The notes: generated from the sequence alone by a model not told the origin. Shown: positions 2,867-42,504, numbered from the stretch's first letter. The stretch: DNA of 64,000 nucleotides from Candidatus Sumerlaeales bacterium (GCA_038243585.1 JBBSQY010000011.1:16154-80153); one strand, 5' to 3'. Program-made: numbers and translations.

Positions 2867-2915
2867 TGACTCGTTATTTTATCCCGACGATGACAATTTT
2901 AAATAGGAAACAAAA

Positions 2916-3140
2916 ATGAGAGAACGCACCATTCGGGTCCTGATGGACAAACGAAACAATCGATTCGCTATTCATGACGTGGTATCCGGCGATCTCTTGC
3001 ATATATTTTATCCTACGCGAGACATCTCCGAGATGGCTCCTCAGCAGATTGTGGACAATGAGAACGAGGCCATTCGTGATTTCATGGTAAACGGAAATCA
3101 TGGGGACGAAGACGACAGCGAAAATGAGCTGGGCTGGTAG
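2916..3140 (+). CDS. Small acidic hypothetical protein (74 aa)
   Basis: The ORF ends 1 nt before the ATG at 3142 of the next gene, suggesting an operon. It has no recognisable motifs and only a weak RBS. Confidence 0.3.
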   Translation: MRERTIRVLMDKRNNRFAIHDVVSGDLLHIFYPTRDISEMAPQQIVDNENEAIRDFMVNGNHGDEDDSENELGW

Positions 3141-3141
3141 C

Positions 3142-5347: not shown

Positions 5348-5439
5348 ATTTTTATTGATCTTCTTATTGGAAGGCGATAGACGCTTTGTTTACTGATTGC
5401 GGAAACTGATATTCGATTATCGATTGTTGAGGTTGGGAA

Positions 5440-5844
5440 ATGAAACACGTTCGACTGCTGGCCCTGAGTGCTATGGTTTTTGCGATTTGCGCGAGCGGCT
5501 TTGCGCGCGGTCCATTTTATCCTGAAAATACCGGCGCAAAAAAATCCCGTAAGTTTGCTCGTGGATTTGTTAACACCTTGTTTTTCTGGGCTGAAGTTCC
5601 CAAGGAAGTCAATCGCGACTGGCAGAACGTGGATCCGCTGACCGGTGTGGTTACTGGAACTGGCAAAGGTATGTATAAAGGCGCGCAACGTTTCGGTGCG
5701 GGCGTATATGAAATGGTGACATTCCGTAAAGATCAACCGGCCAACTATCAGCCGCTGATATACCCGGAAGTTGTTTTGGAAGACGGATATGACTGGGGCG
5801 CTGAAGAATATTATCATCAGCAGCGGTCGTCGAATCTATATTAA
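5440..5844 (+). CDS. Small secreted protein, paralog A of a tandem pair (uncharacterised family)
   Basis: Signal peptide MKHVRLLALSAMVFAICASGFA. Shares conserved blocks with the next ORF (G.VNTLFFWAEVPKEVNRDWQNVDPLTG...GTGKG...G..R...G.YE..TF....PANYQPLIYPE). Confidence 0.55.
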   Translation: MKHVRLLALSAMVFAICASGFARGPFYPENTGAKKSRKFARGFVNTLFFWAEVPKEVNRDWQNVDPLTGVVTGTGKGMYKGAQRFGAGVYEMVTFRKDQPANYQPLIYPEVVLEDGYDWGAEEYYHQQRSSNLY

Positions 5845-19600: not shown

Positions 19601-20484
19601 AGCTGGAAATGATCCACGTGACGGAAAAGAAAGAACGGGATTTGGGCAAGTTGTTTCTGGAGCCGGGCGGGGCTGTTCGTGGGGTTGTGGAAAATCACCT
19701 GGGCGACCCTGTCCCGAATATGAAGGTTACGGTGAAGGGGGTAACCCCTACGAAGCAAACGACTACCGATGCTGCGGGAAATTATATGATTCAGGGCGTT
19801 CAGTTTGGCCGCTGGTCTGTGGTAGTCGAGGGTACTATGTCGAGCAAACCCATTTACGCCTTTCAAACTTCAGATTTTGAACGGGACGAATCTGAACAAT
19901 TGGATTTTATGTTGGAGACTACGGCAGACCTTTCCGGTCGCCTGATGGCGTCTGGAGAATCTGACCTACGCTCCGGCTCGGTAGCCATCCACGCTTATGA
20001 CGAAAACAATGTTGTGTTGGAAAACGTGCATTATGACGCTAAGGCAAGTTCTAACAATTTTGATATTAATGAAGTTCCGCCCGGACAGTACTTTTTATGG
20101 GTTGCAGGGCAGGGAGCAACTTCCTCTTTAAGTGCATGGAAAGATATCTTCCTGGAACGCGGAAAGAACCACACGAACGTGGAAATTGGATCGAGCAAAA
20201 TTCAGGGCAAGGTCATGACCGGAGCGGGAGAGCCAATTTCTAACGTTGCGGTGCAGGTGCTCCCGATTTTTAATATGCCGCGGCTATCGCAGAATTTGTA
20301 TAATAAGCTGATCCGTCCTACAGTATCCAGTGCGGACGGGTTGTTTAGTTTTGAGAATTTGCAGGCGGGATCTTACCAGGTGATTACGGAAACAGCTGTG
20401 GGTGGCGGATGGTATGCACAGCCGATTTTTCGGCTTAATAGTGCGCAGACATTCCAGGGGTTAAATGTGTTATTGAATGACTGA
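16630..20484 (+). CDS. Giant secreted/surface protein (1284 aa) composed of about 12 carboxypeptidase-regulatory-like (CarboxypepD_reg) beta-sandwich repeats
   Basis: N-terminal signal/TM (LLGVLLAVLAVGLLLTF). Recurrent units of about 80-100 aa follow the pattern G.V.D..G.P..GA.V.......T...G.F.F..LP.G.Y. Confidence 0.6.
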   Translation: MHMLENLSSRHSRLLGVLLAVLAVGLLLTFSDSVSGYDAPKALTRITGTHARTPGVIPSTYNGRSSRKSDAKDSGTSGAATLSGPDYSTSITLHGRTLDEQDKPLSGVKVSVRRSGYSETVKTQDSGKDGSFSLDGLPADTYDILATHEKFVSLIRPSYTFKPVETMVHMDFHLPLGANINGLVVNEEGQPLENVRVAARRKQATESKKNGAVLLDDSTYHTQITDKPGTFTLSGISLGDNVFEFFVPGYAMERMALDISPEKAAEQMKVTLKRTGIIAGMVLDENNQPVSTATVSLTRYKPLQSEAQNIDKGKLTAVTNAKGEFKFEKLYNEGYYDLLVEEAQYAPGIYPLVPANSDRVVCQVGLGGEISGLSQLIDRPTTAVSVLIKATALIKGTTFTKESTSDGAGRFRFQKLPYGAYSLTVDDGKFLSEPKDGVACAREKPTQDVAVELFETARLKGRVSDSENDASVPGAKVTLKATYGFDKARQKTFTLTADAHGVFDFGKLPSGIHIAQAEARGFLKGQTVKSQQNFVLTPGERKSDLILYLDHGGSVEGFVLDPAGRSVADVDIQLFAATQFDGAVDPAKLKGRTDGTGYFKVWGIEVGERVQLYASASKAGYTKTRSDMVELSPKAMSQAVQISISDGGEVTGIVTDKNKMPIPGAEVRMDSQAFPGDPSPSHIVVHSQPNGTYRVDSVPPGGATLTVSRAGFVKQGRGVTVRDSQHNDNVNFELESGTTIAGVVEDLDGNPIAGAKVKATGIKGSAGSEEDTTDKKGNFELNNLGKGDFRLDTTFNITTPEGVQAYSFTNPSVRSGTAQASIECDLGNTTLGKVKGEKGKDVDNFTVTLNSKTDTKTSQDFVFNLARGLKDSGGFFRLSKLPRGIYKVTVTADGFEPYVEDEVAIGPHKRTVLSEIRLNPAGGVVGRVYSTTSDRPVNNASVKLESVDSLAGEAPTVVSGSTNMRGDFRVATVPQGMYRVSIDHPSYIGTKLEMIHVTEKKERDLGKLFLEPGGAVRGVVENHLGDPVPNMKVTVKGVTPTKQTTTDAAGNYMIQGVQFGRWSVVVEGTMSSKPIYAFQTSDFERDESEQLDFMLETTADLSGRLMASGESDLRSGSVAIHAYDENNVVLENVHYDAKASSNNFDINEVPPGQYFLWVAGQGATSSLSAWKDIFLERGKNHTNVEIGSSKIQGKVMTGAGEPISNVAVQVLPIFNMPRLSQNLYNKLIRPTVSSADGLFSFENLQAGSYQVITETAVGGGWYAQPIFRLNSAQTFQGLNVLLND

Positions 20485-26929: not shown

Positions 26930-28414
26930 CTAGAACCGGTATCGGGTCTGGAAATAAAAGAAGTTTGCCGGGTCACTTCGGCCTGAGGCTGCAGGGAACG
27001 TGCTGGGAAAGAAGCGGGCAACTCCGGATTCGTAGGTCAGGCATTTGCTGGATTGGTATTCCGCCGTGAGACTTAATTCCTGGCCGATTGCGCTGCCGCT
27101 TCGTCCGGTTATGTCTCGAATTGCGTTTTCACCCGGGCCGTTTGACCACTCGTCTTTCTTACTGTCCATCCAGTAGGAATGGGCTTCGGCCTGAAAGGAT
27201 AATTTTTTGGTGGGCTGGATTTTCCCGATGAGGGCCAGCTCGCGCAGGTTGCGCGGGCGAACGAAATCTATAATTCCGTAGGGGCTATGGTTGGTTCCAA
27301 AAAGATTGTTGAACCCTCCGGCTACACCGTCGTTGGGATCATCGTCTCCACTGGCAAGGGTTCCGACGAGACCGAGGCTGGGCTTCCATGGTTGCTCCCA
27401 TTCGTATGTTAGATCACCACGTAGAAAATGCGCACGGATCTGATCTTTTGAGTAGCGGCCAAACTGAAAGGCGCCCTCGGCCGTGTAGCTGAGAGTGCCG
27501 GCGTCAGTTTCGCGCAGCGGACCGTAAAGTACGGATCCAACTGTATAGCGGTTTGCGCTGCCGTAGGTTCCGTCTTCGCTCTTTCGGTCTGGCGCGTAGG
27601 TCCGGTGTGAATCTTTGTCCGTATGGCCGAGAAAATAGCTTTCCAGGGTGTGAGGTTTGAAGTGTCGGGACGTTGTGTATGCACCGTAGAGAAACTCATC
27701 CTGTCGAGGTCTTCCCCGGCCGGTAATGATGTCGTCGCCGCGGCGCCGCTCGTAGTAATTGGGGTGAAGGACGAACAGGTCGGCGTCCAAATCTTCGGTG
27801 CGGTACATCGCTGTTACGCCGTCGAATCGGCGGCGAAGATTACTCCAGTTGCTGGCGTCCACCAGGCGTTTGTCGCGGCCCAGACTCAACTCCTGGCGAC
27901 CAACGCGCAAAGCCCATGGCCCATTGCCAGGCTGTTTAAAGTCCAGAAAAGCCTGGTGTAGATCACCATGATCTTCCTGGTTTTGCTCCTGTTTTGCGTC
28001 GATTACCCGGGCATCCACAAATTCCACAAAAGCCCGGACAACCGTCCCGTAAGTCAAATCGAAATTAATCCGGGTCCGCAGGAATCCAAGACCATCGTTG
28101 CTGGAGTTGTTTGAATCGTTAAGATCGAAATTGTCCCGGTACTCTGCCCGGGCCCTAACTTCGCCGCCTACCTGAAGGTTATACTCCTGCTCGGCTCCCC
28201 ACACCATGGGCTTGAACAGATGGTATTCGTCTTCTTTTTCTTTGGACTCGGTGGAACCGGCGTCGGTAGAGATGGTGGATGTGGTTTCGGGAGAGGCTGG
28301 AGGTTGGGCGGACGCGGATGTCAACCAGATGGCCAGGATGAGAAAACATGGGGCGAATTTGACATTGGCAGGGCGAAATGGAATTGTGAACCTATAAAAA
28401 TCGATAGTTTTCAT
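26930..28414 (-). CDS. Outer-membrane beta-barrel protein (alginate-export/porin-like)
   Basis: Signal peptide and alternating amphipathic beta-strand character with an aromatic-rich C-terminus ending in F (FYFQTRYRF). Lies 102 bp downstream of, and co-directional with, the 986 aa repeat protein. The family assignment rests on pattern only. Confidence 0.45.
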   Translation of the reverse strand: MKTIDFYRFTIPFRPANVKFAPCFLILAIWLTSASAQPPASPETTSTISTDAGSTESKEKEDEYHLFKPMVWGAEQEYNLQVGGEVRARAEYRDNFDLNDSNNSSNDGLGFLRTRINFDLTYGTVVRAFVEFVDARVIDAKQEQNQEDHGDLHQAFLDFKQPGNGPWALRVGRQELSLGRDKRLVDASNWSNLRRRFDGVTAMYRTEDLDADLFVLHPNYYERRRGDDIITGRGRPRQDEFLYGAYTTSRHFKPHTLESYFLGHTDKDSHRTYAPDRKSEDGTYGSANRYTVGSVLYGPLRETDAGTLSYTAEGAFQFGRYSKDQIRAHFLRGDLTYEWEQPWKPSLGLVGTLASGDDDPNDGVAGGFNNLFGTNHSPYGIIDFVRPRNLRELALIGKIQPTKKLSFQAEAHSYWMDSKKDEWSNGPGENAIRDITGRSGSAIGQELSLTAEYQSSKCLTYESGVARFFPSTFPAASGRSDPANFFYFQTRYRF

Positions 28415-28516: not shown

Positions 28517-31477
28517 CTATTCCGACGCGCGAATGAAACCTTTTCCTTCTGATGTGACTTCTGCGTTTCCTATTACAGAGTCGCCGGACCACACTTCGTA
28601 TTGTCCCGGTGCGGCATCGGCTTCAAGGCCTTCGGCGGTCCACCGAGCACTTGTGGTCTGGCGTGACTGGCGGTTCATCATTATTATTGGCGAGTCGCTC
28701 TGTAAATTTAAAGCAGGGTCGATCGTGAAAATGACCGGCTGAGGGGGCGTCAGGTCCAGCCTTATTGTCGCGGGCTCTTCTCCGGCCTTGATAGCCACAG
28801 AAGCGGCGGCCTTAATTGTATCATTTTCGCTATTGAATTCTGTAGATATGGAATAGGAGTCGGGGGTGAGCCCTTCAAATAAAAAGCCTCCATTTGGGCC
28901 GGTGGTTTCGTTTCTTTGTTCATAGCTGGAATCAGTCTCCGACAATAATTGAACGGCCGCTCCGGGGACGGGCTCGCCCGCTATCTCGACTATTCCTGAC
29001 AAGCTGGCCATGGGCACTGCCGCCAGGTCAACGGTGACGCTCTGCCCCGGAGCGAGTTCAACGTTCAGCGCATAACTGGAAGTGGCCTCGCCGGCTCCCA
29101 TTACGAGGTAATTGCCTGCAGGGAGGCCGGTCATGCTGTATTTCCCGTTGGAGCTGGTTGCCTGGAACTCCGCCTTGTCTCTACCTGCGGATTCCGGGAC
29201 TGCCGTGTTTACTAACGTCACCACTACCGGCTGATTCTCAGCACCTGTGGCCCCGGAGATTGAGCCTGTCGCAGTGGATGAAAGAGAAATGGTTTTTCCC
29301 GTCGCCCGCTCCCCCGCCCAGTCGAAGGACTCGCTTACTATAATCGCGCCGTTTGTGGCGTTTACAGCCACAACGCGGAATTTCCCCTCCTCGCCGATTC
29401 CCGTCTCCAGGGATTCTCCGCCCGTGACTTCTCGCGTAAAGATGGAGTGGCCCATCAGCTGATCTGCGTAGGCACCGATGCCCCATGGCGACATGCGCAC
29501 GACATGCACATTCCAGGCTGTCGACGGAGACGCCTCTACCAATATGACAAGTTTGCCCAATGGCTGCATGGTCAGGATCTTTTCATCGGCGGGTAGCTGC
29601 ACGTTCTGCTCTCTATAATTGGCAAAGGAGGCAGCCTCGGCCACTATTCCAGGCAGCACGTTGGCGGTCAGGTCTTCTGCTTGAAATTTCCCAGTCTCAT
29701 CCGTCTCCAGCTGCAGGGGCCCACCGTCTGACTGAAACAACGTGACCCGGGCAAAGGGTATGGGTGCTCCCTGAGGGTTTAATACCTTTCCGGATATTCG
29801 GTTTCCTGCTTCCCACTGGATATCCGGCAAGGTATTAGACCCGGCAGAAAGAGATACCGGATGGGTGGTGGTTCTTGTTCTTGAGCCGTTGGTAACTGAC
29901 AATATGAAGTCTCCGGTGGGCATGGCCGGGAAGGTATAAGTTCCATCCGGGCGTGGGCTTACGCCAGAAAAGAGAGAAGCTGCAGTTCCTGATGGGTCCA
30001 TACCCAAAGTGAAACCACGAACTCTGGTGGTCTCATCGGTATTGACTAACGTCACTCGTCCTGACGCACTGGCGGCCTGCTCTAACTTGAGGGCTACCGG
30101 AATGCTTGTCTGATCTGTTACCGATACTTTTTCAACACCGGTCGCCAAACCTCCGGATATGCCGTATACGCCGTAAGACCCAGCGCGGTAAACCGGGATT
30201 GTTAAGGTGGCGGACGTCGCCAAACGACGTATTGCTTCTTCACTATCTGAGAGAACCGTCATTGATACCGGTTGGGTGGTTGCCCCGAAATTATCCAATT
30301 GGATCTCAAGCAATCGCTGCCTGCGCACGCGGAGTATCACTCCATTGACGTCGGTGAAGCCATCGGTCGCGTTGTACTCGTTTGCAGCTACGAGCTCGTC
30401 CAAACGCCAGCCATCTGATTCAGGAACAGCGAGCGCGAGTTGCCGCGCCTGGTAAAAAGGGCCCAGGACGAAGGATCCGTCTGTGGATGAAGTAGTCCAG
30501 CGATCATCCAGGCCAATAGAAACTTGATTTGCCGGAGCGCTGGTTTCCACATCTATGGCTGAACCGCGAATGTAGTAACCGGCGCTGACTTCCAGGGAAA
30601 TTGAGGTTTTGTTGTCGTCGGGCATTTCGACAACTTCGACCTCGGCGGAGCGTTCACCGTCCATTATCAGAGGTTCAACGGAAAAGGTCCCTCCTGGCAG
30701 TCCGTCAAACTGGAATTGTCCCGCAGGCCCGGCGCGGCGTACGACGTCGAACCCGTTGCCATTGGCGCGGACAATTGTGCCGGCAAATGCGGCAGGTCTC
30801 GAGCCTTTAGAATACACCTCACCGCCAACAGAAAAGCCGCCCTTGTCCATGGGAACGTTTGCTGTGGCCTGGCCTTCGGAAAGTTCGACGTTACCAATAA
30901 CATACCCTTCGACCTGCACAATAAAGCGGTGCGCGATATCCGGCGCGACTCCTTCAAAGGAGAACGAGCCGTTTTGGTCGGAAGTCGTCCACTGAGGAAC
31001 GACCCTCAGGGCACGCTGGGTCTGGGTATCTATTCCCGCAACCAAGGGTCCGATGTTTGCCCCAGCTATCGGCGCGTTTGTCGCGCGGTCCGTAATTTTT
31101 CCTTTCACTGCGATGCCCGGCTCCAGTGCCAGGCCGATTTTAACGCTTTTGGCAGTTGCGGGATTGATGGCATATTTTGTCATCCGATGCGCGGCGCCCC
31201 ATGCTACCAAGGCGACCGGGCTGGTAGAAGACACGTCAATGCTAAATTCGCCTTTGCTGTTGGTCTGCGTTTTCTCTGCCGGTTCCATTTCAGAAGGTGT
31301 CCAGTAACGACTCTGATCCGGCACGACAATCACATGGGCACCTGCCACCGGCACCTTTTTCGAATCTGTTACCAATCCAGTTAGCGTAGCCTGTTGCGCT
31401 AAGGCTCCATTTAAACCTAAAGCTAAAAGCAATGCGCTCAATGCGATATACCGAATTATCATAGTTAAGCTCCTCAA
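28517..31477 (-). CDS. Giant secreted protein (986 aa) of carboxypeptidase-regulatory-like repeats
   Basis: Signal peptide MIIRYIALSALLLALGLNGALAQ, followed by repeated G.V.D....P..GA.V......G.F.F..L..G.Y modules. Confidence 0.6.
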   Translation of the reverse strand: MRSLTMIIRYIALSALLLALGLNGALAQQATLTGLVTDSKKVPVAGAHVIVVPDQSRYWTPSEMEPAEKTQTNSKGEFSIDVSSTSPVALVAWGAAHRMTKYAINPATAKSVKIGLALEPGIAVKGKITDRATNAPIAGANIGPLVAGIDTQTQRALRVVPQWTTSDQNGSFSFEGVAPDIAHRFIVQVEGYVIGNVELSEGQATANVPMDKGGFSVGGEVYSKGSRPAAFAGTIVRANGNGFDVVRRAGPAGQFQFDGLPGGTFSVEPLIMDGERSAEVEVVEMPDDNKTSISLEVSAGYYIRGSAIDVETSAPANQVSIGLDDRWTTSSTDGSFVLGPFYQARQLALAVPESDGWRLDELVAANEYNATDGFTDVNGVILRVRRQRLLEIQLDNFGATTQPVSMTVLSDSEEAIRRLATSATLTIPVYRAGSYGVYGISGGLATGVEKVSVTDQTSIPVALKLEQAASASGRVTLVNTDETTRVRGFTLGMDPSGTAASLFSGVSPRPDGTYTFPAMPTGDFILSVTNGSRTRTTTHPVSLSAGSNTLPDIQWEAGNRISGKVLNPQGAPIPFARVTLFQSDGGPLQLETDETGKFQAEDLTANVLPGIVAEAASFANYREQNVQLPADEKILTMQPLGKLVILVEASPSTAWNVHVVRMSPWGIGAYADQLMGHSIFTREVTGGESLETGIGEEGKFRVVAVNATNGAIIVSESFDWAGERATGKTISLSSTATGSISGATGAENQPVVVTLVNTAVPESAGRDKAEFQATSSNGKYSMTGLPAGNYLVMGAGEATSSYALNVELAPGQSVTVDLAAVPMASLSGIVEIAGEPVPGAAVQLLSETDSSYEQRNETTGPNGGFLFEGLTPDSYSISTEFNSENDTIKAAASVAIKAGEEPATIRLDLTPPQPVIFTIDPALNLQSDSPIIMMNRQSRQTTSARWTAEGLEADAAPGQYEVWSGDSVIGNAEVTSEGKGFIRASE

Positions 31478-31832
31478 TTATCTACCGAACTAGGTCTGCG
31501 AGTTTTTCAAATGCAAGGGGGGAACTTTACACAGAAGCTGCCATTGCTTAAAAAAAATCACACCTGTCAATTATCCTGTTGCTTTTCGATTTAAGGCCGT
31601 GCACGAAGAGCATTTATATACACGGTGCATTAGGACTGTGCTACCAGTCATAAGTGAGTTAAAATAACAGGCATAATTTTCGCACAAGCTTCAAATTAAT
31701 CAGTACGTTTCACCTGGTAGCTCTCCGCGCGTACGCCGGAATTTAGTTTTAGTCGCAATCCGAGGTTCGTACCGCCCGTCCCACCATTATTTCTTTAACG
31801 CTTAGCCATTCTGTAACGATAGAAAGGATGTG

Positions 31833-31874
31833 TAGCTCTCTTCCTTGGATCCAGCAATGCTGGTGGAAGAGCTA
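31833..31874 (+). promoter_or_regulatory. Nested stem-loop upstream of the first amidase gene
   Basis: The outer 10 bp stem TAGCTCTCTTCC/GGAAGAGCTA encloses an inner perfect palindrome CCAGCA-a-TGCTGG. It lies 65-105 nt upstream of the amidase start. Confidence 0.3.
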
Positions 31875-31938
31875 GACCTGCCATCACTGGATGCAGGAAA
31901 CCGTTCGGCTTTTCGGCCGTATGCTACGTTAGATTGAA

Positions 31939-32976
31939 ATGGAGTTTTTTATAATGGTTCGGCATTTTCGTATTACTCTCATGGCCGCTTTGGCTATTAC
32001 CTGTTCCGCAGGATGGAGCGCCAAAGTTTGCATCGATCCCGGTCACGGCGGATCCGACCCTGGCGCAGTAGGCAGCACGCAGCAGGAAAAAACCAACGCT
32101 TTGAATACTGGTCTGAAATTTCGTGACTGGTTGAACGCTGATACCACGGACGGCGGCGGCGGCGGATCCTGGCAGGTGCTAATGACGCGCACTTCTGACG
32201 TATTCGTATCGTTGACTGCTCGGTCTGACTATGCGAACAACAACGGCGTGGCGCGCTTTATGTCCATCCACAATAACGCCTGCGGATGCGGTGCAAGTGG
32301 CACGGAAACTTATAGCCATACCAGCAACGGCGCTTTAAGCAACGACCTCCGGAATAACATTCAGTCACGTTCGATTCAGGCTTGGGGACTGCCAAACCGG
32401 GGCAATAAACAGGATAACTTTTCTGTGCTACGCGAGACAAATATGCCTGCGACTCTGGCAGAACTTGGTTTTATCGATAATGCCGGTGACCGCGGTTTTC
32501 TGGGCAGTTCTACGCAACAGAACACCATGGGTAAGTACCATATGTTTGCGTTGCAAAATCACTATGGCATTACCGCTTATACCCCTGGAGCAACTCTGCC
32601 AACATATGTGGACGACACTCCGGCAGTAAGCAGTGGCTGGTCTACCGGAACATCAGCAGGCGACAAGTATGGCTCTGATTATAAGTACAAATCAACTGCC
32701 GCTGTTAGTGATCCTGCCACGTGGAGCATCAACGTAGGCACGGCCGGATCTTATAAAATCCAGGCATGGTGGCCTGCAGGCACCAACCGGTCACTTGGCT
32801 CGCCTTTTGTTCTACCTAATGGAGCAACTGTTAACGCGAACCAGCAGATAAATGGTGGCAAGTGGAACACGCTGGGCACTGTTAGCCTGGGCACCGGCAC
32901 CAGAGACACGCAGCTTTCGTGTTGGGCTGCATCCGGCTATATCGTGGTGGCCGACGCCATTCGTTACACGCCTTAA
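31939..32976 (+). CDS. N-acetylmuramoyl-L-alanine amidase (Amidase_3 family) with uncharacterised C-terminal beta domain, copy 1
   Basis: Signal peptide, then the Amidase_3 motifs KVCIDPGHGGSDPGA, ANNNGVARFMSIHNNA and ELGFIDNAGD. The last 130 aa or so (WSTGTSAGDKYG...GGKWNTLGTVSLG...) form an unassigned domain. The likely ATG is 31957, with GGAG 9 nt upstream. Confidence 0.8.
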   Translation: MEFFIMVRHFRITLMAALAITCSAGWSAKVCIDPGHGGSDPGAVGSTQQEKTNALNTGLKFRDWLNADTTDGGGGGSWQVLMTRTSDVFVSLTARSDYANNNGVARFMSIHNNACGCGASGTETYSHTSNGALSNDLRNNIQSRSIQAWGLPNRGNKQDNFSVLRETNMPATLAELGFIDNAGDRGFLGSSTQQNTMGKYHMFALQNHYGITAYTPGATLPTYVDDTPAVSSGWSTGTSAGDKYGSDYKYKSTAAVSDPATWSINVGTAGSYKIQAWWPAGTNRSLGSPFVLPNGATVNANQQINGGKWNTLGTVSLGTGTRDTQLSCWAASGYIVVADAIRYTP

Positions 32977-33010
32977 ATCATATATCATAAGCGAAGAACC
33001 TGTAATTTTC

Positions 33011-33047
33011 ACACCCCGGATTATACAATCCGGGGTGTTTCTTTTTT
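33011..33047 (+). terminator. Rho-independent terminator of amidase copy 1
   Basis: Hairpin caccccgga/tccggggtg followed by TTTCTTTTTT. Confidence 0.7.
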
Positions 33048-33338
33048 GCCAATGGTTGGTCCTCCGGGTAAAGGAGTGAAGGCTTGTAACACTGTCCCAG
33101 TGCAATTAAAAAGGTTGCGTTGTGGATTCGGTCCCTGCGTTTCATTTATTGTTCGCTCGTCAATTAAAAATTATGGCGGCGGAGTGCAGGTCCTCCCTGG
33201 CGGGTGAGCGGCTTGAAATGCAATTATGCGCTTATGTGACTATGCCATAAAAAGATGGTTGACATTGGAAGACCCCACGGGTGGATTTGCGTGAGGTTTA
33301 TTGCTGGTAAGGTTCAAATTTTTTGGAGTGTCTGTTTC

Positions 33339-34340
33339 ATGAAACCCAAACAGTTGGCACTCATTGCCATCGCGGCCGTGGCGGTAGTCGGAATAATCGT
33401 TACGCAGCGAAACTCGTCTTCGACAAAAGTCGTTGCTTCTGCAAAACCTAACCAAAGTAATCAGAGTAAAGCCACAACCGCAGGAGCGGAGAAAAAACCA
33501 GTGCAGGCGGAATTAAAGCCTGAAGTTTTCTTTCTGGACGAAGCGGGTACAGATGCTGCGGCGAAGCGCCCTCGCGCTAATATGCTTCCCAAGGTGAACG
33601 GCACTCGATCTATCGCTAATGTGCGCGCGATTACCAGCCGGGAAGAGGGAGACTTTATGTCGCCGGTCTGGTCTCCGGATGGTCTTGAGCTGATGTTCAG
33701 CAAACCCGGATTCGCGGGCCTTTACACTAAGGGAATTCTGGGCGGCGGAATTACGCAGATTACGGCAAAGGAAAACGTAGGATTTAACGCGAAATGGACG
33801 AAAGACGGAAAAATTGCTACCAAGACCAATGATGGCGACGTCCAGGAGTTCAATCCGGACGGCACTCCGGCTGGAAGTGCTTCTCCAATAAGCGACAGTT
33901 CGGTCACGGGCCCGTTTTCCAGCAATGATACCGTCTTTTATCGAGCAAACCCGGGAGAGGCGCCAACTCCTATAAGCGCGGGAGAGGATCGTTACTATGG
34001 TGGCGTAGTGTCCCCCGATGGAAAGCACATCGCGTATAACGGTTTGGAAACAGGCATTTATGTACGGCCTTTGGATGGATCCGCCGCACCAGTAAATATC
34101 GGTTTTGGAACAAATCCTTCTTTCCTGCCGGACAGTAGCGGAATCGTTTACAGCGTCACACAGGACGACGGCCATAACCTTGTCGCCGGCGATCTCTATT
34201 TATCCACTCTGGATGGAGGTCAGGTTTCAGACCTAACCAACGCTTCGCCTGCCATCGAAACAAAACCTATGGTCAGTCCCGATGGAGGCAGTATTGCTTT
34301 TGAATCCGACGGCGTTATTTTCGTCGGCGATTTCAAGTAA
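33339..34340 (+). CDS. TolB-like PD40 beta-propeller repeat protein, secreted/membrane-anchored
   Basis: The ATG at 33339 has GGAG 11 nt upstream. An N-terminal TM/signal (LALIAIAAVAVVGIIV) is followed by repeated SP.WSPDG / SPDGK..A PD40 motifs. Confidence 0.6.
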   Translation: MKPKQLALIAIAAVAVVGIIVTQRNSSSTKVVASAKPNQSNQSKATTAGAEKKPVQAELKPEVFFLDEAGTDAAAKRPRANMLPKVNGTRSIANVRAITSREEGDFMSPVWSPDGLELMFSKPGFAGLYTKGILGGGITQITAKENVGFNAKWTKDGKIATKTNDGDVQEFNPDGTPAGSASPISDSSVTGPFSSNDTVFYRANPGEAPTPISAGEDRYYGGVVSPDGKHIAYNGLETGIYVRPLDGSAAPVNIGFGTNPSFLPDSSGIVYSVTQDDGHNLVAGDLYLSTLDGGQVSDLTNASPAIETKPMVSPDGGSIAFESDGVIFVGDFK

Positions 34341-34404
34341 ATGGGTTCATTAATTATGGATAGGAGGCGCCTACAGTAATCTTTCAAGAATCCTAATTTC
34401 GCGA

Positions 34405-35499
34405 AAGAGAACACCCGTTATCATTGGATGCGGGAACCAATTCGGAAAGACCGGAATGGAGCTCTTAAATATGTTTCAAAATCACACTCGGATTGCCCTG
34501 GCGGCAACCCTTGCAATTGCTTGCACTACAGGTTATAGTGCAAAAGTTTGTATTGATCCCGGTCACGGTGGGTCAGACCCAGGTGCAGTCGGCGGCGGAC
34601 AATACGAAAAAACCAATGCGCTGAACACAGGATTGAAATTCAGGAACTGGCTGAACGCCGACAGCAGCGACGGCGGCGGCGGCGGATCCTGGCAGGTGCT
34701 GATGACGCGCACATCAGATGTATACGTGTCATTGACGGCTCGGTCCAGCTATGCCAACAACAACGGCGTGGCGCGCTTTATGTCCATCCACAATAACGCA
34801 TGCGGATGCGGCGCAAGCGGTACGGAAACTTTTAGCCATACCAGCAATGGATCTTTAAGCAACGACCTCAGAAACAATATCCAGTCACGTTCGATTCAGG
34901 CTTGGGGGCTCCCAAACCGGGGCAACAAGCAGGCCAACTTCTCTGTGTTGCGCGAGACGAATATGCCTGCAACCCTGGCAGAACTTGGTTTTATCGATAA
35001 TGCTGGTGACCGCGGTTTTCTGGGCAGTTCTACGCAGCAGGATAAAATGGCAAAGTATCATATGTACGCGCTTCAAAATCACTACGGCATAACTGCTTAT
35101 ACTCCTGGATCAACAAGCCTTCCAACGTATGTCGATGGAAGCCCTACGGTGAGCGCAAACTGGGCAACAGGCACATCGGCATCCGACAAGTATGGAACCG
35201 ATTATAAATGGCGCTCCACTGACGCGGTCAGCGACGCAGCTTCGTTCACCATGAATGTTGGAGTAGCGGGATCTTACAAGGTCCAGGCCTGGTGGCCTGC
35301 TGGCAGCAATAGGTCTCCAAGTGCACCGTTTATCCTTCCTAATGGCAGCTCTGTCAGCGCCAATCAACAGGCGAATGGCGGGAAATGGAATACTCTTGGC
35401 ACGGTCAGCCTTGGAACCGGGAACAGAACAACAATGCTATCGTGCTGGACCGGCGCCGGCTATCTGGTTGTGGCAGACGCGGTTCGCTACACACCTTAG
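34405..35499 (+). repeat. Direct segmental duplication (about 1.1 kb) of the region 31890-32976, comprising an amidase gene plus a roughly 50 nt conserved leader
   Basis: The two amidase ORFs and their leaders (tcactggatgcaggaaaccgttcgg versus tcattggatgcgggaaccaattcgg, each followed by aatggag) align visibly. The two terminators have diverged. Confidence 0.75.
34456..35499 (+). CDS. N-acetylmuramoyl-L-alanine amidase (Amidase_3 family) with the same C-terminal beta domain, copy 2
   Basis: About 85% identical to copy 1 across its whole length, with identical catalytic motifs. The likely ATG is 34471. Confidence 0.8.
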   Translation: MELLNMFQNHTRIALAATLAIACTTGYSAKVCIDPGHGGSDPGAVGGGQYEKTNALNTGLKFRNWLNADSSDGGGGGSWQVLMTRTSDVYVSLTARSSYANNNGVARFMSIHNNACGCGASGTETFSHTSNGSLSNDLRNNIQSRSIQAWGLPNRGNKQANFSVLRETNMPATLAELGFIDNAGDRGFLGSSTQQDKMAKYHMYALQNHYGITAYTPGSTSLPTYVDGSPTVSANWATGTSASDKYGTDYKWRSTDAVSDAASFTMNVGVAGSYKVQAWWPAGSNRSPSAPFILPNGSSVSANQQANGGKWNTLGTVSLGTGNRTTMLSCWTGAGYLVVADAVRYTP

Positions 35500-35531
35500 T
35501 ATTAATGTAATATTTACGTGCTCTCTTATGC

Positions 35532-35567
35532 ACCCCCGGGCTCTTTTGCTCCGGGGGTTTTTTGTTT
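35532..35567 (+). terminator. Rho-independent terminator of amidase copy 2
   Basis: Hairpin cccccggg/cccggggg followed by a run of 7 T. Confidence 0.7.
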
Positions 35568-35790
35568 AAATATGGGTGCGAACCATATGAAGAGGTGGCG
35601 GCGGTTGACATGACAGCTTCGAATTCAATCCGCAATAGCACAATCGTGTTCCGCACACAGCGAAAGCGTTGAGGATAGCACCCACATATCGTAATGGTCT
35701 GGGTAAACGCCGGTGAACTGCTCAGGAGCAACACATGTCAGCTTTTGTTTCGTCTTCCTTTTTGCGCGTCTTAGGAATGAGGCCTCGTCA

Positions 35791-35830
35791 TAAAAAAATT
35801 GTCCGTCACCAGATCAGGTGACGGACAAAA
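35791..35830 (-). terminator. Terminator hairpin downstream of the TPR gene (bidirectional)
   Basis: A perfect 12 bp stem (ttgtccgtcacc/ggtgacggacaa, loop agatca), with an A7 run on the plus side that reads as a T7 run on the minus strand. Confidence 0.6.
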
Positions 35831-35974
35831 TTAAAGAAGGCAGATCCGAATTTCACTAAGGCGTCCGTCCACTAACCTGTCTTAGAGAAGTGATGGCTTT
35901 TGGACTTTGTGCTCCGCACTGCAAAAAGACATCATAACTTGAAGATTAAGGAATCCGTTGGGAACCCAATTTGG

Positions 35975-38680
35975 CTAGTGAGCGTGGTTGTCGCCTTCTA
36001 TGTTCAGTTTTTTACCGGTGTCGAGGGGGTTTCCGTCCTTACCAAAATCCAGGTGTATAGCGGGTTTGTTTTCGTGATCATCATGGTCGTCATGATCGTC
36101 TTGACCAGTGGCTGCAGCCGGTTGTTTTTTGTCGCTTTCAACTTTCGCCAGTCCTGCCGCGCCGAGATCGTGGCCGGGACCGTGATCATGATCCACGTGT
36201 GCTGGTCCGTATTCCAGCATGGCGCTTTCCACCAGCATACTGGTCGGAACTTCCATGCGATCAAGACGCATCACTTCGTCTCTTGCGAGCTGTTCGCCTA
36301 TTACGTCTCCTGTCGCGAGTTGTATAAAATCGTTATAAAACTTCCTCGCCTGCTCGATGCGACCTGTTTGAGCGAGAGCGCGTGCCGCATTTAATAGCGC
36401 CCTGGTAGCTGTTCTTTCGAGAGGAAGATCCGCCGCCAGTTTCTGCCATTGATCCACAGCAGGATCGATCTGACCTTCCAAACGGTAGGTCAGCGCCAGG
36501 TTATTTCGGAGAAAGGCCAGGCTTGCCGGCTCTGTCGTTCTACTTATTTCTTCACTCAGAACCCGCCGTGCCTCGTCGAAATCCTTTATTGCAGCGTATG
36601 TGCTTACGATAATATCCGTGGCAGAAACGGCCTCTTCCGGAAACTCCTCCTTCAGTTTATAGAAGAAATGAAGTGCTTCCTGATAAAGTCCGGCCGAAGC
36701 CAGCACACGCCCTTCTTCCAGCAGGAAGACTTCTCGCTCAGGAACGTTTTTATTGTTCAGCATTGTCATCAGAAAGTCCAGATGCTCTTTTCCATTTCCG
36801 TGTTTACGCGCCAGGGCGAGGGCGCTGGAGTGGACTTCGTGAATGTGATACTGGTGGCCGTTCACGCCGTGCTCAATAATTTCACGGTAGAACTTCATGG
36901 CGTCTTCATAGCGCCCGACACGCCCCAGGGCGGCTGCGTAATTCAAACGATACCTCGTGTCGTCCTGCATGGTCAGCGCGCGCTCATACAGCGGAATTGA
37001 GAGTTCCGGATAACCCTGGGTAGCGTATACGTATGCCGCCAGGTGAACTTCCTCTGGCATGGCGTTAGGCCGTTCCGAAAGATATTTCGGGACCTCTACC
37101 GCTTTTTCGGGCTGGTTGAAGAGCCGGTATAGGGCCATAAGTTTCTCATAGGGTTCCGGCGAGTACGGCTTAAGGCGAATGGAGTTCCACAAAGCTTTTG
37201 AAGCAGAGTTGGCGGCTTTTTCCAACTGCTCAAGGGGCGGACTTGTTTCCACATTATCAGAGACCAGGTGCCATGCCTCTGAGGCCAGGCCATTTGCGAG
37301 TTCCCGGGCGGCGTCGGAGTCATTGGGACGAGCTTCTGTGTATCTTGTCAGCGCTTCATACATCCCTCCATGGTTTCCTGTCTGGTTTTCCAGGCCCATA
37401 AGCAACACGTAAGCATTGGCGGCGGTTTCGGTAGAGCTGGAAACTTGCGCTTCCACGGCGGTACGCAGACCTTCCAGATTGTCAGGACTAAAATGGATAA
37501 ACGGCGCAGCGGCAATATCGCGCACTTTTTCGTAAGGAAGTTTTTCAGATAGTCTCAGCAGTTCCGTCACCAGGTCAGCCATTGGTCCAATCGCCCCGAG
37601 ACTTGACAGGTAAAGATTCATTGCTGTCTGCTGTTCACCGTCTTGTAATTCGTTAAAATCCAGAGGCTTCAATATCTCCACGACTTTCGGGAAAGTTTTC
37701 GCACGGAAGTGGTGCTGGGCCAGGTGGAGCCTGATTCGGGTTGCGTCGTTGCTTATCGGCAATAGTTCTTCGTAAAGCGAGATAACCCGCGACGTATCCA
37801 GCGCCACCAGGGTGGCCAGCTCTTCAAGCCATATTGATTTTTGGTTATTGGTCATTGTGGATGAAGTCACAGCTTCCAGAGTTGCCAGCGCGGTTTCGGA
37901 ATCTCCCTTTTTCAGGGAGGAGAGAGCAAATAGCCAGGCCTGGACGGGGGAAGTACTGATGTTCTGCTTGAGCGAGACATGAAAATCTTCGTAGGTGGAT
38001 CCCATGCTCAGGGCGGTGAGTCCCGCCAGCGCCAGCTCTCGAATTTCCGGGTATGTGTAGGTGGATGAGGTTACTACGGTCTCAACAACTTTAGGGATAA
38101 CAGCGGAAAGGCGCTCGGAACCGCCCACAAGCAGAAGCCGTTTAAAAAGATCACGCAGATCGGGTCCACTGAGTTCCGCAGAACCGAGGGCTTTTTCCAG
38201 TTCCAATGCAGCGACCTCCGCCTGGCCGAGTTGCTCCAGCTGGTTGGACAAAAGAAGCGTTCTCTGGTAGACGCTCTGCCCTTGATCAATCGGGGTGCGC
38301 AAGAGCTCCACTGCTTCTGTAGATCTTCCAGCGCTAACATAGGTCCGCGCGCGAACCAAAGGGGGCAGGGCGGCCAATGCTGGATCGTTACTTAATAGCT
38401 CCTCCACCGCAGTCGTTTGAGCCGTTTTGCTAAGGAACCGCGCGTATGCAGGAAAACCAGTATCAGGACAACATTGGATCAACTGACGATATATGGCGTC
38501 CGCGCCGGCTTTATCGCCGGACGCCGTGAGGGTGTATGCCTGGGCCAGAAGCGGTTCCGCTTCTCCCCCACCGACAGATTGGGACACAGCTGCGGCGGCA
38601 GGGTATACCCCTGAGCCGATTGTCAAAACCAGTCCGCCTTGCACAATCCATTTTGTGTAATTCAGCGTAATTTTAAACAT
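35975..38680 (-). CDS. Large tetratricopeptide-repeat (TPR) protein with a His/Asp-rich C-terminal tail
   Basis: 901 aa. The N-terminal signal is followed by recurring TPR-like pairs (A..YA.AL...G.Y..A...Y). The C-terminus is HVDHDHGPGHDL...DDHDDHDDHENK...GDNHAH. Confidence 0.6.
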   Translation of the reverse strand: MFKITLNYTKWIVQGGLVLTIGSGVYPAAAAVSQSVGGGEAEPLLAQAYTLTASGDKAGADAIYRQLIQCCPDTGFPAYARFLSKTAQTTAVEELLSNDPALAALPPLVRARTYVSAGRSTEAVELLRTPIDQGQSVYQRTLLLSNQLEQLGQAEVAALELEKALGSAELSGPDLRDLFKRLLLVGGSERLSAVIPKVVETVVTSSTYTYPEIRELALAGLTALSMGSTYEDFHVSLKQNISTSPVQAWLFALSSLKKGDSETALATLEAVTSSTMTNNQKSIWLEELATLVALDTSRVISLYEELLPISNDATRIRLHLAQHHFRAKTFPKVVEILKPLDFNELQDGEQQTAMNLYLSSLGAIGPMADLVTELLRLSEKLPYEKVRDIAAAPFIHFSPDNLEGLRTAVEAQVSSSTETAANAYVLLMGLENQTGNHGGMYEALTRYTEARPNDSDAARELANGLASEAWHLVSDNVETSPPLEQLEKAANSASKALWNSIRLKPYSPEPYEKLMALYRLFNQPEKAVEVPKYLSERPNAMPEEVHLAAYVYATQGYPELSIPLYERALTMQDDTRYRLNYAAALGRVGRYEDAMKFYREIIEHGVNGHQYHIHEVHSSALALARKHGNGKEHLDFLMTMLNNKNVPEREVFLLEEGRVLASAGLYQEALHFFYKLKEEFPEEAVSATDIIVSTYAAIKDFDEARRVLSEEISRTTEPASLAFLRNNLALTYRLEGQIDPAVDQWQKLAADLPLERTATRALLNAARALAQTGRIEQARKFYNDFIQLATGDVIGEQLARDEVMRLDRMEVPTSMLVESAMLEYGPAHVDHDHGPGHDLGAAGLAKVESDKKQPAAATGQDDHDDHDDHENKPAIHLDFGKDGNPLDTGKKLNIEGDNHAH

Positions 38681-40680: not shown

Positions 40681-42504
40681 TTGTTTTTATCCAGATACAA
40701 GCTGCACCGTCTCATAGTAGTTACGACACTGGCAGTATTATCGGTTGCGCCTATTTCGGCTCAACTCCTCGATGAGGCGGTTTGGTTTCAGCGGCCTGTG
40801 GGGCAGGGAGTTTATTGGAAATACTATCATTTCAAAAACCTGTTTGGCTCCAGACAAAGCGTTTCCTACATTGAAGTCGACCTTTCCACCCCTAACGTGA
40901 ATCTTGCAATAAATTACAGAGACAGCTATGTCGGCCCCAGCCCTGGCACAGGAAGCCCTTTATATCCCCGGGCGCCGACAAGCACTTTGGCACAGGGCAT
41001 TCCTGGTTCAAAAGCGGCGATCAATGGGACCTATTTCAATACAGCATCATATGATTCGACCAACCCGACGGTCCCATGGGGCGGTGGAACAACTTATCTG
41101 AAAGTAGATGGTTCAACTATACACAATTTTGATGGTACCAGCGTAAACCGGTATCTCATGGGAATCCTGTTTAACAGTAAAGACGATGTTACTGTATTCA
41201 AGAGGTCTGGTGCCTGGGCCAATCGTAGTGGTTCGTGGAATAACATGATGATTAGTGGACCCATCCTGGTTAACAACGGCTCCATAGAAACTTATGCCGG
41301 GGACAACACTCATGCCAATGCTCGACATCCGCGTTCTGCAGTGGGCAAAACCGCCGTCGGCAACAAACTGATAATGCTTACGGTGGACGGCCGAACGGCT
41401 GAGTCGGCTGGGATGTCATGCACGGAGCTGGCGCAGGTGATGAAGGCATTGGGCTGCAATTACGCGGTGAATCTGGATGGCGGCGGATCAACGACATTGT
41501 GGGCGACGGGCGAGCCTTTTAGCGGTGTAGTAAACTATCCTTCCGACAACGGCGAGTTCGATCACCTCGGACAACGGTTCTGCGCGAATGCACTCGTGGT
41601 TACATCGACAGCTCCGGTCAAGCCGGCGTATGATGCGCGTTTGACAGGGCTGACCTACGATTCACTGACGCGCAGTCAGGATGTTGTTACCGTGACGGCC
41701 AGCTACACGAACATTGGCAGCGCCACATGGACTTCGTCTAACGTGGACGTGGTGCCAAGCCGGAATTTTGGACGTAGCAGCGCGTTCATTCCCGCCGGCA
41801 GCGAAAACAATTTTGATGTAATGACGCCTTCAAGCGTGGCGCCGGGCCAGACGGCAACCTTTAAGTTGAATCTGAAAGCCCCGGTGGTGGCGGCCAACCG
41901 CAGCTATGAGGAAAACTTCGCCTTGTGGAACTCATCCACCGGTTATTTCGGACCTGCGGATGGAGAACTGAAAGTGCAGACGACGGTGCGTCCGGCGATT
42001 ACTGGCGCGCCACCGTTGCTGGTGGTGCAGGGAACCAGTGACGGACCAAATAATCAATGGTATCTGGAAGGTCTGGGAAACTGGGGAAACTCGAGTGTGG
42101 GCTTCAGTGCGCCGGGAGTTGCGAACTCCGGCACGCAGCGCTATGTGTCGGCTACGGTAACAGGACAGCACGCTGACTTCAGGCCGATTTTCGAAGTTCG
42201 GGGTGTGTATCGAGTAGACGTGGCCTTCCCTGCCAGCAGCAGCAATATTAATCCTGTTCACTACACGGTGAATCATCTGAACGGCTCTCAAACAGCCACT
42301 GTAAATCAGAACAACAGCGACCTTGCCAATAAGTGGCAACTGCTTGGAGAGTTTCCTTTTGGAACGGATTCTATCGCCAACCTTGGGGTCCACTCGGTTC
42401 GAGTAAGTAACAACACATCCACAGGCAATCGCTTCTACTCAGGGGCCATACGGCTTGACTATGTTGGCCCCCTGGCAGACGTTACCGACTGGGCTCTATA
42501 TTAA
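40681..42504 (+). CDS. Phosphodiester glycosidase (NAGPA/DUF2233) family protein with C-terminal Ig-like domains
   Basis: The NAGPA-domain hallmark ALGCNYAVNLDGGGSTTLW, an N-terminal signal, and about 250 aa of C-terminal beta-sandwich-like sequence. Confidence 0.6.
   Translation: MFLSRYKLHRLIVVTTLAVLSVAPISAQLLDEAVWFQRPVGQGVYWKYYHFKNLFGSRQSVSYIEVDLSTPNVNLAINYRDSYVGPSPGTGSPLYPRAPTSTLAQGIPGSKAAINGTYFNTASYDSTNPTVPWGGGTTYLKVDGSTIHNFDGTSVNRYLMGILFNSKDDVTVFKRSGAWANRSGSWNNMMISGPILVNNGSIETYAGDNTHANARHPRSAVGKTAVGNKLIMLTVDGRTAESAGMSCTELAQVMKALGCNYAVNLDGGGSTTLWATGEPFSGVVNYPSDNGEFDHLGQRFCANALVVTSTAPVKPAYDARLTGLTYDSLTRSQDVVTVTASYTNIGSATWTSSNVDVVPSRNFGRSSAFIPAGSENNFDVMTPSSVAPGQTATFKLNLKAPVVAANRSYEENFALWNSSTGYFGPADGELKVQTTVRPAITGAPPLLVVQGTSDGPNNQWYLEGLGNWGNSSVGFSAPGVANSGTQRYVSATVTGQHADFRPIFEVRGVYRVDVAFPASSSNINPVHYTVNHLNGSQTATVNQNNSDLANKWQLLGEFPFGTDSIANLGVHSVRVSNNTSTGNRFYSGAIRLDYVGPLADVTDWALY

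Follow-up and report, generated by a model that had tools for sequence, protein, structure and literature searches.

Why are two closely similar amidase genes kept on either side of a single β-propeller gene, and what is the role of the sequence that both carry ahead of their start codons? These questions are raised by a DNA stretch of 64,000 nucleotides (nt) from the uncultivated Candidatus Sumerlaeales bacterium (Candidatus Sumerlaeota, Sumerlaeaceae); we call this whole stretch the window, and positions are counted along it. Two plus-strand open reading frames (ORFs) for Amidase_3 proteins, at 31939/31954..32976 (copy 1) and 34456/34471..35499 (copy 2), bracket an ORF for a PD40 β-propeller protein at 33339..34340. 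A preliminary description of the locus had interpreted this as a segmental duplication of two amidase genes with novel C-terminal domains and short leaders that can mask the ribosome-binding site. As outlined below, we consider it likely that the locus contains an old paralogous pair of CwlV-like amidases with a Golvesin_C domain, partly overwritten by gene conversion, and that each gene is preceded by a conserved three-hairpin leader acting in cis on the mRNA. The proteins are ordinary new members of known families; the leader may be a new RNA motif with a narrow distribution.

A CwlV-like amidase domain

Copy 1 (31954..32976, plus strand) encodes 340 amino acids (aa) when read from its second ATG, the length of database protein P0005, and its ORF also opens at 31939. 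Copy 2 (34471..35499, plus strand) encodes 342 aa and is 100% identical to database protein P0001. The two copies match the Pfam Amidase_3 profile (PF01520) with 136.1 and 141.7 bits against a cut-off of 27, over nt 32026-32553 in copy 1 and nt 34546-35076 in copy 2. Residues H32, E46 and E171 are invariant in both homologue alignments (25 and 63 homologues), H107 is invariant among the 25 and nearly so among the 63, and all four align with the corresponding residues of CwlV; based on established knowledge of CwlV-type amidases, we take them to be the zinc ligands and the catalytic glutamate. An AlphaFold2 model of copy 2, built on the 63 homologues, reached a predicted local distance difference test score (pLDDT) of 91.7, and in Foldseek its N-terminal domain superposed on the structures 4RN7 (template modelling score, TMt, 0.91, E 1.7e-20) and 1JWQ (TMt 0.93). 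Compared to the CwlV/CD2761-type domains (1JWQ, 4RN7) and Nostoc AmiC2 (5EMI), the fold is the same, with TM scores of 0.91-0.93 and root-mean-square deviations of 1.4-1.5 Å.

The preliminary description had placed the proteins beside AmiC-type enzymes, and this label does not fit. The Pfam scan found no AMIN or LysM targeting domain, only Amidase_3 and Golvesin_C, and the autoinhibitory helix is absent from the model, whose strands 102-109 and 118-122 are separated by only 8 residues. The nearest structural matches are of the CwlV-like kind, and the likeness to the CwlV type includes the aligned zinc-ligand and catalytic residues and the lack of an inserted autoinhibitory helix. Escherichia coli AmiA, AmiB and AmiC, periplasmic peptidoglycan amidases involved in cell-wall remodelling, belong to the same catalytic superfamily, but their structural TM scores against the window proteins are lower (0.48-0.83). 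The alignments to AmiA and AmiC in the Protein Data Bank end at residues 132-141, and the NCBIfam AmiA/B/C models gave 52-68 bits against cut-offs of 400-700. From sequence and model, both genes are predicted to encode zinc N-acetylmuramoyl-L-alanine amidases of the CwlV-like Amidase_3 type. Because the AMIN domain and the autoinhibitory helix are lacking, these enzymes would require no LytM-type activator and are probably activator-independent. The alignment also shows a hydrophobic N-terminus, a putative signal peptide, with A-x-A-like sites ahead of the KVCIDPGHGG motif, which suggests that the amidases are secreted.

The window proteins contain a conserved glycine-rich insertion, DGGGGGSW (residues ~66-74), that is absent from CwlV, and their C-terminal partner domain differs from that of CwlV-type enzymes. 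The insertion (D-GGGGG-S-W; 32146-32166 and 34666-34686) is near-invariant in the Sumerlaeota homologues, is missing from the outlier P0120 as well, and has a lower model confidence than its surroundings; it may be a clade-specific substrate loop.

A Golvesin_C domain at the C-terminus

The C-terminal ~130 aa had been presented as an unassigned, novel domain. It is not, because it matches Pfam Golvesin_C (PF25275; nt 32623-32970 in copy 1 and nt 35143-35493 in copy 2), with 80.4 and 81.8 bits against a cut-off of 31.6, over 120 of the 132 profile positions and with E values of ~1e-22. It also aligns to residues 919-1036 of the Paenibacillus xanthan lyase 6F2P (E 6.9e-13), to whose C-terminal domain it is homologous. 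The accompanying guess that the domain resembles a carbohydrate-binding module (CBM) was right: structure prediction gave a CBM6/CBM35-like β-sandwich, and its Foldseek partners were 6F2P, CBM35 (2W1W, 2W46, 2W47), CBM6 (2CDP) and the xanthan-binding module MiXBM (7EHG). In a study of Bacteroides lectins (PMC9166713), this domain family is named CBM6-CBM35-CBM36_like_2, and xanthan lyase and golvesin are listed among its carriers. An assignment to CBM84, a module of a GH9 xanthanase (PMC10049358), was considered and ruled out. The relatives of the window domain, i.e., the 6F2P C-terminal domain and the Bacteroides lectins Cbeg4/5, share its sequence family and a β-sandwich fold like that of CBM35 and CBM6, whereas in the window the domain is fused to a peptidoglycan amidase and also to a NAGPA enzyme. 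A match to a known peptidoglycan-binding module had been anticipated as a possibility; the match is indeed to a known domain, but no peptidoglycan binding is documented for the Golvesin_C family. We infer that Golvesin_C directs the amidase to a glycan, which may be the backbone of peptidoglycan or a different polysaccharide of the envelope.

The combination of Amidase_3 and Golvesin_C was present in 120 of the 120 best listed homologues, and those with a source name are from Sumerlaeota/BRC1. A scan of genome contigs returned only four full-length Sumerlaeota loci, the remaining matches being to the amidase domain alone. The same architecture was also considered for Bacillota, where the ORF in locus L024 is too short (290 aa), that in L020 has only 277 aa, and L034 has no ORF of at least 200 aa. 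A third Golvesin_C protein in the window (40681-42504, plus strand, 607 aa) joins NAGPA, a phosphodiester glycosidase, to Golvesin_C (E 4e-13), which suggests that this genome reuses the domain as a tag for its secreted envelope or glycan enzymes. Its recurrence on amidases throughout Sumerlaeota, a phylum without a cultured representative, and on another secreted enzyme in the window points to a phylum-typical targeting of envelope enzymes. In locus L086 (1475-4653), which lacks a PD40 gene, two Amidase_3+Golvesin_C genes directly follow an Amidase_2+Golvesin_C gene. Upstream of each Amidase_3 copy lies one of two homologous hairpins that resemble terminators (GGCCTGGCGG/CCGCCAGGCC versus GGCCCGGCGG/CCGCCGGGCC), after which comes TAATTT(T)AACC.

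An old duplication overprinted by gene conversion

That the two amidase genes are paralogues was confirmed, but they are 81% identical at the protein level (281/347) and 76-78% in their coding nucleotides, and not ~85% as first reported, a value that averages over a converted tract and old diverged flanks. Along the coding sequence, the identity between the copies is a mosaic of 70.5% in the 5′ part, 88.6% over a tract of 334 nt, and 70.1% in the 3′ part. Based on identity, informative sites and synonymous divergence (dS), the tract covers 32178..32511 in copy 1 (outer bounds 32125-32521) and 34698..35031 in copy 2 (outer bounds 34645-35041), both on the plus strand. For the orthologues, copy 1 with L091_1 and copy 2 with L090_2 (the suffix gives the copy), the identity was 75-78% in the 5′ part, ~73% in the middle, and 74-76% in the 3′ part. 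Trees were built from alignment columns 1-180, 181-630 and 631-1038, whereas identity and dS were calculated within the tract boundaries (~columns 226-564). In these trees, copy 1 grouped with L091_1 with a bootstrap support of 98% in the 5′ segment, 0% in the middle, and 78% in the 3′ segment, copy 2 grouped with L090_2 with 90%, 0% and 55%, respectively, and the two window copies grouped together with 0%, 100% and 1%. The paralogue dS exceeded 2 in the 5′ part (proportion of synonymous differences, pS, 0.71) and in the 3′ part (pS 0.74), and was 0.58 in the tract; the orthologue comparisons were saturated at synonymous sites even within the tract. Informative sites of the paralogue type versus the orthologue type numbered 39:8 in the tract and 24:54 outside it (Fisher p=1.3e-8), and a longest-identical-run test singled out the window pair (p=0.0015). 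The duplication is older than the separation of, at least, the lineages of the window, L090, L091 and L001, and ~0.33 kb of the catalytic domain was later homogenised between the window copies by gene conversion. With saturated synonymous sites, separate orthologues for each copy and an overprint of gene conversion, a simple, recent and datable segmental duplication is not tenable. The ratio dN/dS is well below 1 throughout, and therefore both copies are kept under purifying selection. The locus is a clean example of gene conversion making an ancient duplication look recent, which matters wherever duplications in metagenome-assembled genomes are dated by the identity of the paralogues.

A first protein tree had paired the paralogues within every two-copy genome, suggesting either recent duplications or concerted evolution, and the codon-level analysis settles this for the window lineage. 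Repeated independent duplication in each lineage (birth and death), rather than conversion, would also cluster paralogues by genome, and would agree with that tree and with the variable gene order: amidase-PD40-amidase in the window, L001, L004 and L090, PD40-amidase-amidase in L085, amidase-amidase-PD40 in L087, and in L086 an Amidase_2+Golvesin_C gene followed by amidase-amidase. However, in the window lineage the up-copies and the down-copies form separate orthologous groups in the 5′ and 3′ segments and in the leaders (55-98% bootstrap), the paralogues pair in the middle segment alone (100%), and the L090 paralogues, which show no homogenisation, do not cluster. We therefore hold birth and death to be quite improbable here, and independent duplication may have occurred in L085, L086 and L087. 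Since the distant L005-L008 show PD40 followed by a single amidase gene, we take this to be the ancestral order, from which, in the window lineage, a second copy of a ~1.2-kb unit would have arisen across the PD40 gene, before the divergence of the relatives sampled.

The duplicated unit spans leader and coding sequence and probably the terminator, i.e., 31819-33047 and 34357-35563. That it would reach the terminator follows from the resemblance of the two terminator stems (CACCCCGG versus CACCCCCGG). As had been noticed before, each amidase gene has its own intrinsic terminator, a GC-rich hairpin with a T-run on the plus strand: for copy 1 at 33011..33047 (hairpin 33011-33038), with a 12-bp GC-rich stem, found by terminator scan and folding, and for copy 2 at 35533..35563 (hairpin 35533-35557), with CCCCCGG...CCGGGGG and T6, found by folding and direct reading. 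In L001, the identity between the paralogues (2138-3163 versus 4515-5543) also increases locally, independently of the window tract, and reaches 83-84% across the Golvesin_C region (columns 811-990), which suggests an independent conversion tract in that lineage.

A conserved three-hairpin leader

The extent of the leader depends on where the genes start. Because the database calls P0005 and P0001 begin at the second ATGs, these positions (31954 and 34471) are probably the true start codons, and with these starts a GGAG lies 9 nt upstream of both amidases. The in-frame first ATG of each gene (31939-31953 and 34456-34470) overlaps the Shine-Dalgarno sequence (ATGGAG), by which a gene caller can add 5 spurious residues; the second L090 amidase, for example, was called from 8329 instead of 8344.

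The shared 5′ leader is real, but it is considerably longer than the ~50 nt originally described and measures ~115-135 nt. For copy 1 it runs from 31819 to 31953 (plus strand), with an AAAGGA box at ~31823-31828, hairpin P1 at 31838-31871, P2 at 31877-31897 followed by a GGAAACC tail, P3 at 31906-31919, and the Shine-Dalgarno GGAG at 31941-31944. For copy 2 it runs from 34357 to 34470 (plus strand), beginning 17 nt past the PD40 stop codon, with an AGGAGG box at 34362-34367, P1 at 34380-34408, P2 at 34414-34434, P3 at 34441-34456, and GGAG at 34458-34461. The "nested palindrome" that had been ascribed to copy 1 alone is P1 (31838-31871), and copy 2 has its equivalent at 34380-34408 (TCTTTC...GAAAGA).

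The similarity is also found in orthologues: the leader precedes both amidase copies in the window, L001 and L090, and the amidases of L088, L091, L092 and L213, thus 10 distinct leaders from 7 genomes or contigs, which score 83-113 bits with the covariance model (CM) R1 (copy 1, 109 bits; copy 2, 83 bits). From 5′ to 3′ the layout consists of an AAAGGAG box, P1 (CTCTTCC...GGAAGAG with a variable loop), P2 (CCYG-n-CATC-NNNG-GATG-CRGG) with a RAACC tail, a P3 of variable sequence, and GGAG 6-10 nt before the ATG. Folding of the leaders across orthologues with RNAalifold, as the preliminary description had proposed, recovered P1 and P2 on MAFFT and CM-based alignments alike, and the element behaves like an RNA structure. 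In total, 93% of the cells were paired compared to 38-56% with the partners slid, between four (MAFFT alignment) and seven (CM-fitted alignment) pairs changed on both sides, and the covariation score was reached by 0 of 500 shuffles. Examples are the change of CCTG/CAGG to CCCG/CGGG in P2 of copy 2 and L090_2, of CATC/GATG to TGTC/GGCA, with a U·G pair, in the inner P2 stem of L213, of CTCTTCC/GGAAGAG to CTCATCC/GAATGAG in P1 of L001_1, and GGAGGAG in P1 of L213, which gives a U·G pair. The leader structure is therefore conserved with compensatory and G·U changes. Across the leaders, P3 is formed by at least five unrelated stem sequences at one position (CGGCC/GGCCG, GGCC/GGCC, GCGG/CCGC, TTCGG/CCGAA, AGCAC/GTGCT and AGCA/TGCT).

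Since the DNA upstream of the AAAGGA box hardly aligns between orthologues and the neighbouring synonymous sites are saturated, the leader is under constraint. Its orthology, with the leader of copy 1 resembling those of L091_1 and L090_1 and the leader of copy 2 resembling that of L090_2, is in line with the tree of the 5′ gene segment. In the 64-kb window the P2 core motif has exactly two matches, against 0.04 expected by chance, and the CM R1 search of the window found no copies beyond those of the two amidase genes. A scan of 30500-37000 against Rfam 15, on either strand, gave no match at E up to 1, and among the at least 120 matches listed in a metagenome scan for the P2 motif, none had the 5′ arm of P2.

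The residual similarity of a duplicated unit, or spill-over of conversion, could in principle leave two similar leaders without any function. The leader does belong to the duplicated unit, the two window leaders are only 59% identical overall, and the folding z-scores are modest. However, the adjoining coding sequence is saturated at synonymous sites (pS 0.70-0.74) while blocks of the leader are invariant across the 10 distinct leaders, the orthologues cannot be aligned upstream of it, the 5′ coding segment was not converted, and the helices are kept by compensatory changes, which makes a functionless relic very unlikely.

A weak CM R1 match (13 bits, E 3.2) was found upstream of an amidase gene of L085, and by eye this region looks like a diverged P1/P2/P3. 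Both leaders of this AT-rich locus (leader GC content 0.33; 3117-3250 and upstream of 4841) have a tetraloop hairpin followed by (U/C)AACC, and the hairpin stems are unrelated in sequence (AACC/GGTT and CTGAATT/AATTCAG). If these hairpins are homologous, the P2-plus-AACC core extends beyond the detection range of CM R1.

Possible role of the leader

How could such a leader act? The model proposed in the preliminary description combined a fairly recent duplication with co-regulated amidases whose GGAG pairs with upstream sequence, as in a riboregulator or thermometer-like switch. The pairing pointed out at the time, CCAATTCGG...CCGGAATGG, is indeed predicted in copy 2 (p ~0.85), where it consists of P3 and three further pairs: both here and in L090_2, an extension of P3 forms CCA...UGG and, with a pairing probability of 0.85-0.98, masks the two leading G residues of the Shine-Dalgarno sequence. 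Moreover, a CC[A/G] that closely follows P2 on its 3′ side is able to pair with [U/C]GG of the Shine-Dalgarno sequence in 7 of the 10 leaders, the third pair being A-U, G-C or G·U. This helix is lacking in the other 3 leaders, though, the predicted partners of the Shine-Dalgarno sequence differ from leader to leader, and the mean pairing probability of GGAG was 0.62 compared to 0.67 when the upstream sequence was shuffled. Because of these last two findings, occlusion of the ribosome-binding site is not supported beyond chance and a simple mechanism of this type is less likely. Nor is the duplication recent, given dS values above 2 outside the tract and separate orthologues for each copy, so that we regard this model as a whole as unlikely.

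P1 and P2 might instead act as DNA and be recognised by a transcription factor, either as operators of palindromic sequence or within a promoter. Their stems are highly conserved in sequence besides their pairing, the element sits where the promoter of copy 1 must be, and no promoter was identified elsewhere, as the sites found by a promoter scan were no commoner than in shuffles. Conversely, Watson-Crick pairs have given way to G·U (in DNA, G·T) in L213 (P1 and P2) and in copy 2 (P2), which keeps an RNA helix but breaks a DNA palindrome, the inner P2 stem of L213 has changed wholly in sequence with its pairing kept, and P3 retains its position and pairing with unrelated sequences. The element of copy 2 is also probably transcribed, since it starts so close behind the PD40 stop codon and no terminator lies between. 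We favour an RNA element over a DNA operator because of the G·U pairs and because P3 is conserved independently of its sequence, and we give the DNA alternative little weight.

We infer that the leader works in cis at the mRNA level. Most likely it is an element that affects stability or is recognised, by a protein or RNase, and it would thereby set how much amidase is made. A terminator scan of 34341-34470, from the PD40 stop to the start of copy 2, found no terminator; with the leader of copy 2 only 17 nt behind the PD40 stop codon, the element may uncouple the amidase from PD40, and it would then set amidase output independently of PD40. Other mechanisms were considered and rejected. The AAAGGAG box is not followed by a conserved start codon or reading frame, which speaks against a leader peptide, and P3 does not qualify as attenuator or terminator, with stems of 4-5 bp and U-runs that are weak or absent in copy 2 and L090_2. 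CsrA-type GGA sites are unlikely, because L213 and L085 retain the hairpin but have lost the GGA motifs of P2 and of the tail behind it.

A number of findings weigh against this reading of the locus. The leader was seen only in a narrow clade, with amidases at least ~71-75% identical, and CM R1 did not detect it in L004, L086, L087 and L005-L008. Its folding energies are unremarkable (z -0.4 to -3.1), the compensatory changes in P1 and P2 go back to a small number of independent events, and these stems are conserved in sequence too, which would equally fit a recognition site for a protein or a site in DNA. With regard to the genes, the conversion tract coincides with the most conserved region of the protein, although selection alone is argued against by the drop in synonymous divergence within the tract.

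The cyclic-di-AMP ydaO riboswitch is an example of a structured 5′ leader upstream of cell-wall hydrolase genes. The window leader shares with such leaders that it is a conserved multi-hairpin 5′ element directly upstream of the Shine-Dalgarno sequence of a hydrolase gene, but it consists of three simple hairpins, has no evident junction resembling a ligand pocket, and has a narrow phylogenetic range. A more far-reaching and doubtful possibility is that P1-P2-P3 represent an undescribed class of cis-regulatory RNA, responsive to a ligand or protein and dedicated to the peptidoglycan amidases of Sumerlaeota, that couples amidase synthesis to envelope status within a phylum-specific module of PD40, amidase, tetratricopeptide repeat (TPR) and CarboxypepD_reg genes with a Tol-Pal/CpoB-like role in coordinating wall cleavage. 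The leader described here is a compact candidate for a regulatory RNA, backed by covariation and associated with a peptidoglycan hydrolase; should it prove functional, it would join the few known RNA-level controls of autolysins.

The PD40 gene and the conserved neighbourhood

The gene between the amidases (33339..34340, plus strand) encodes a protein of 333 aa with Pfam PD40 repeats and, as read from the sequence, an N-terminal hydrophobic anchor; a GGAG lies 10 nt ahead of its ATG at 33339. It had been called TolB-like, which holds solely at the level of the propeller blades. The TolB model TIGR02800 gave 62.8 bits against a cut-off of 343 and matched only over profile positions 198-298 (~100 residues), which rules out orthology to TolB, the Pfam scan of the protein found PD40 and no N-terminal domain of TolB, the protein has a hydrophobic anchor instead of that domain, and none of the 14 flanking ORFs scanned (16.6-46.1 kb), which encode unrelated functions, is tolQ, tolR, tolA or pal. 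What it shares with TolB of the Tol-Pal system are the generic PD40-type blades and the context of an envelope protein encoded beside a peptidoglycan hydrolase and a TPR protein (compare CpoB/YbgF).

The linkage of amidase and PD40 proposed in the preliminary description is found across the phylum. An amidase gene adjoins a PD40 gene in 14 fetched Sumerlaeota loci, and where the loci extend far enough, most also have an adjacent gene for a TPR protein (800-900 aa) and one for a giant CarboxypepD_reg-repeat protein. In the window these are the CarboxypepD_reg-repeat protein at 28517..31477 (minus strand, 986 aa) and the TPR protein at 35975..38680 (minus strand, 901 aa), both assigned by Pfam and synteny. 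This four-gene neighbourhood (window 28517-38680) recurs in L001, L004-L008, L085, L087, L088, L090 and L213, and in L007 and L008 the CarboxypepD_reg, PD40, amidase and TPR genes all lie on one strand in an operon-like arrangement.

In the otherwise unalignable DNA between the CarboxypepD_reg gene and the leader of copy 1, a small conserved island, CAGGCATnnTTTTCGC (~31667-31686), recurs in L091 and L090; it may represent a promoter or an operator. Further upstream of the module, the window contains a second giant CarboxypepD_reg-repeat protein (16630-20484, plus strand; 1284 aa, 8 repeats) and an Alginate_exp-type outer-membrane porin (26930-28414, minus strand). The C-terminus of the TPR protein (35975-36150, minus strand) has a His/Asp-rich tail, HVDHDHGPGHD ... 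DDHDDHDDHENK ... GDNHAH, that resembles a metal-binding segment.

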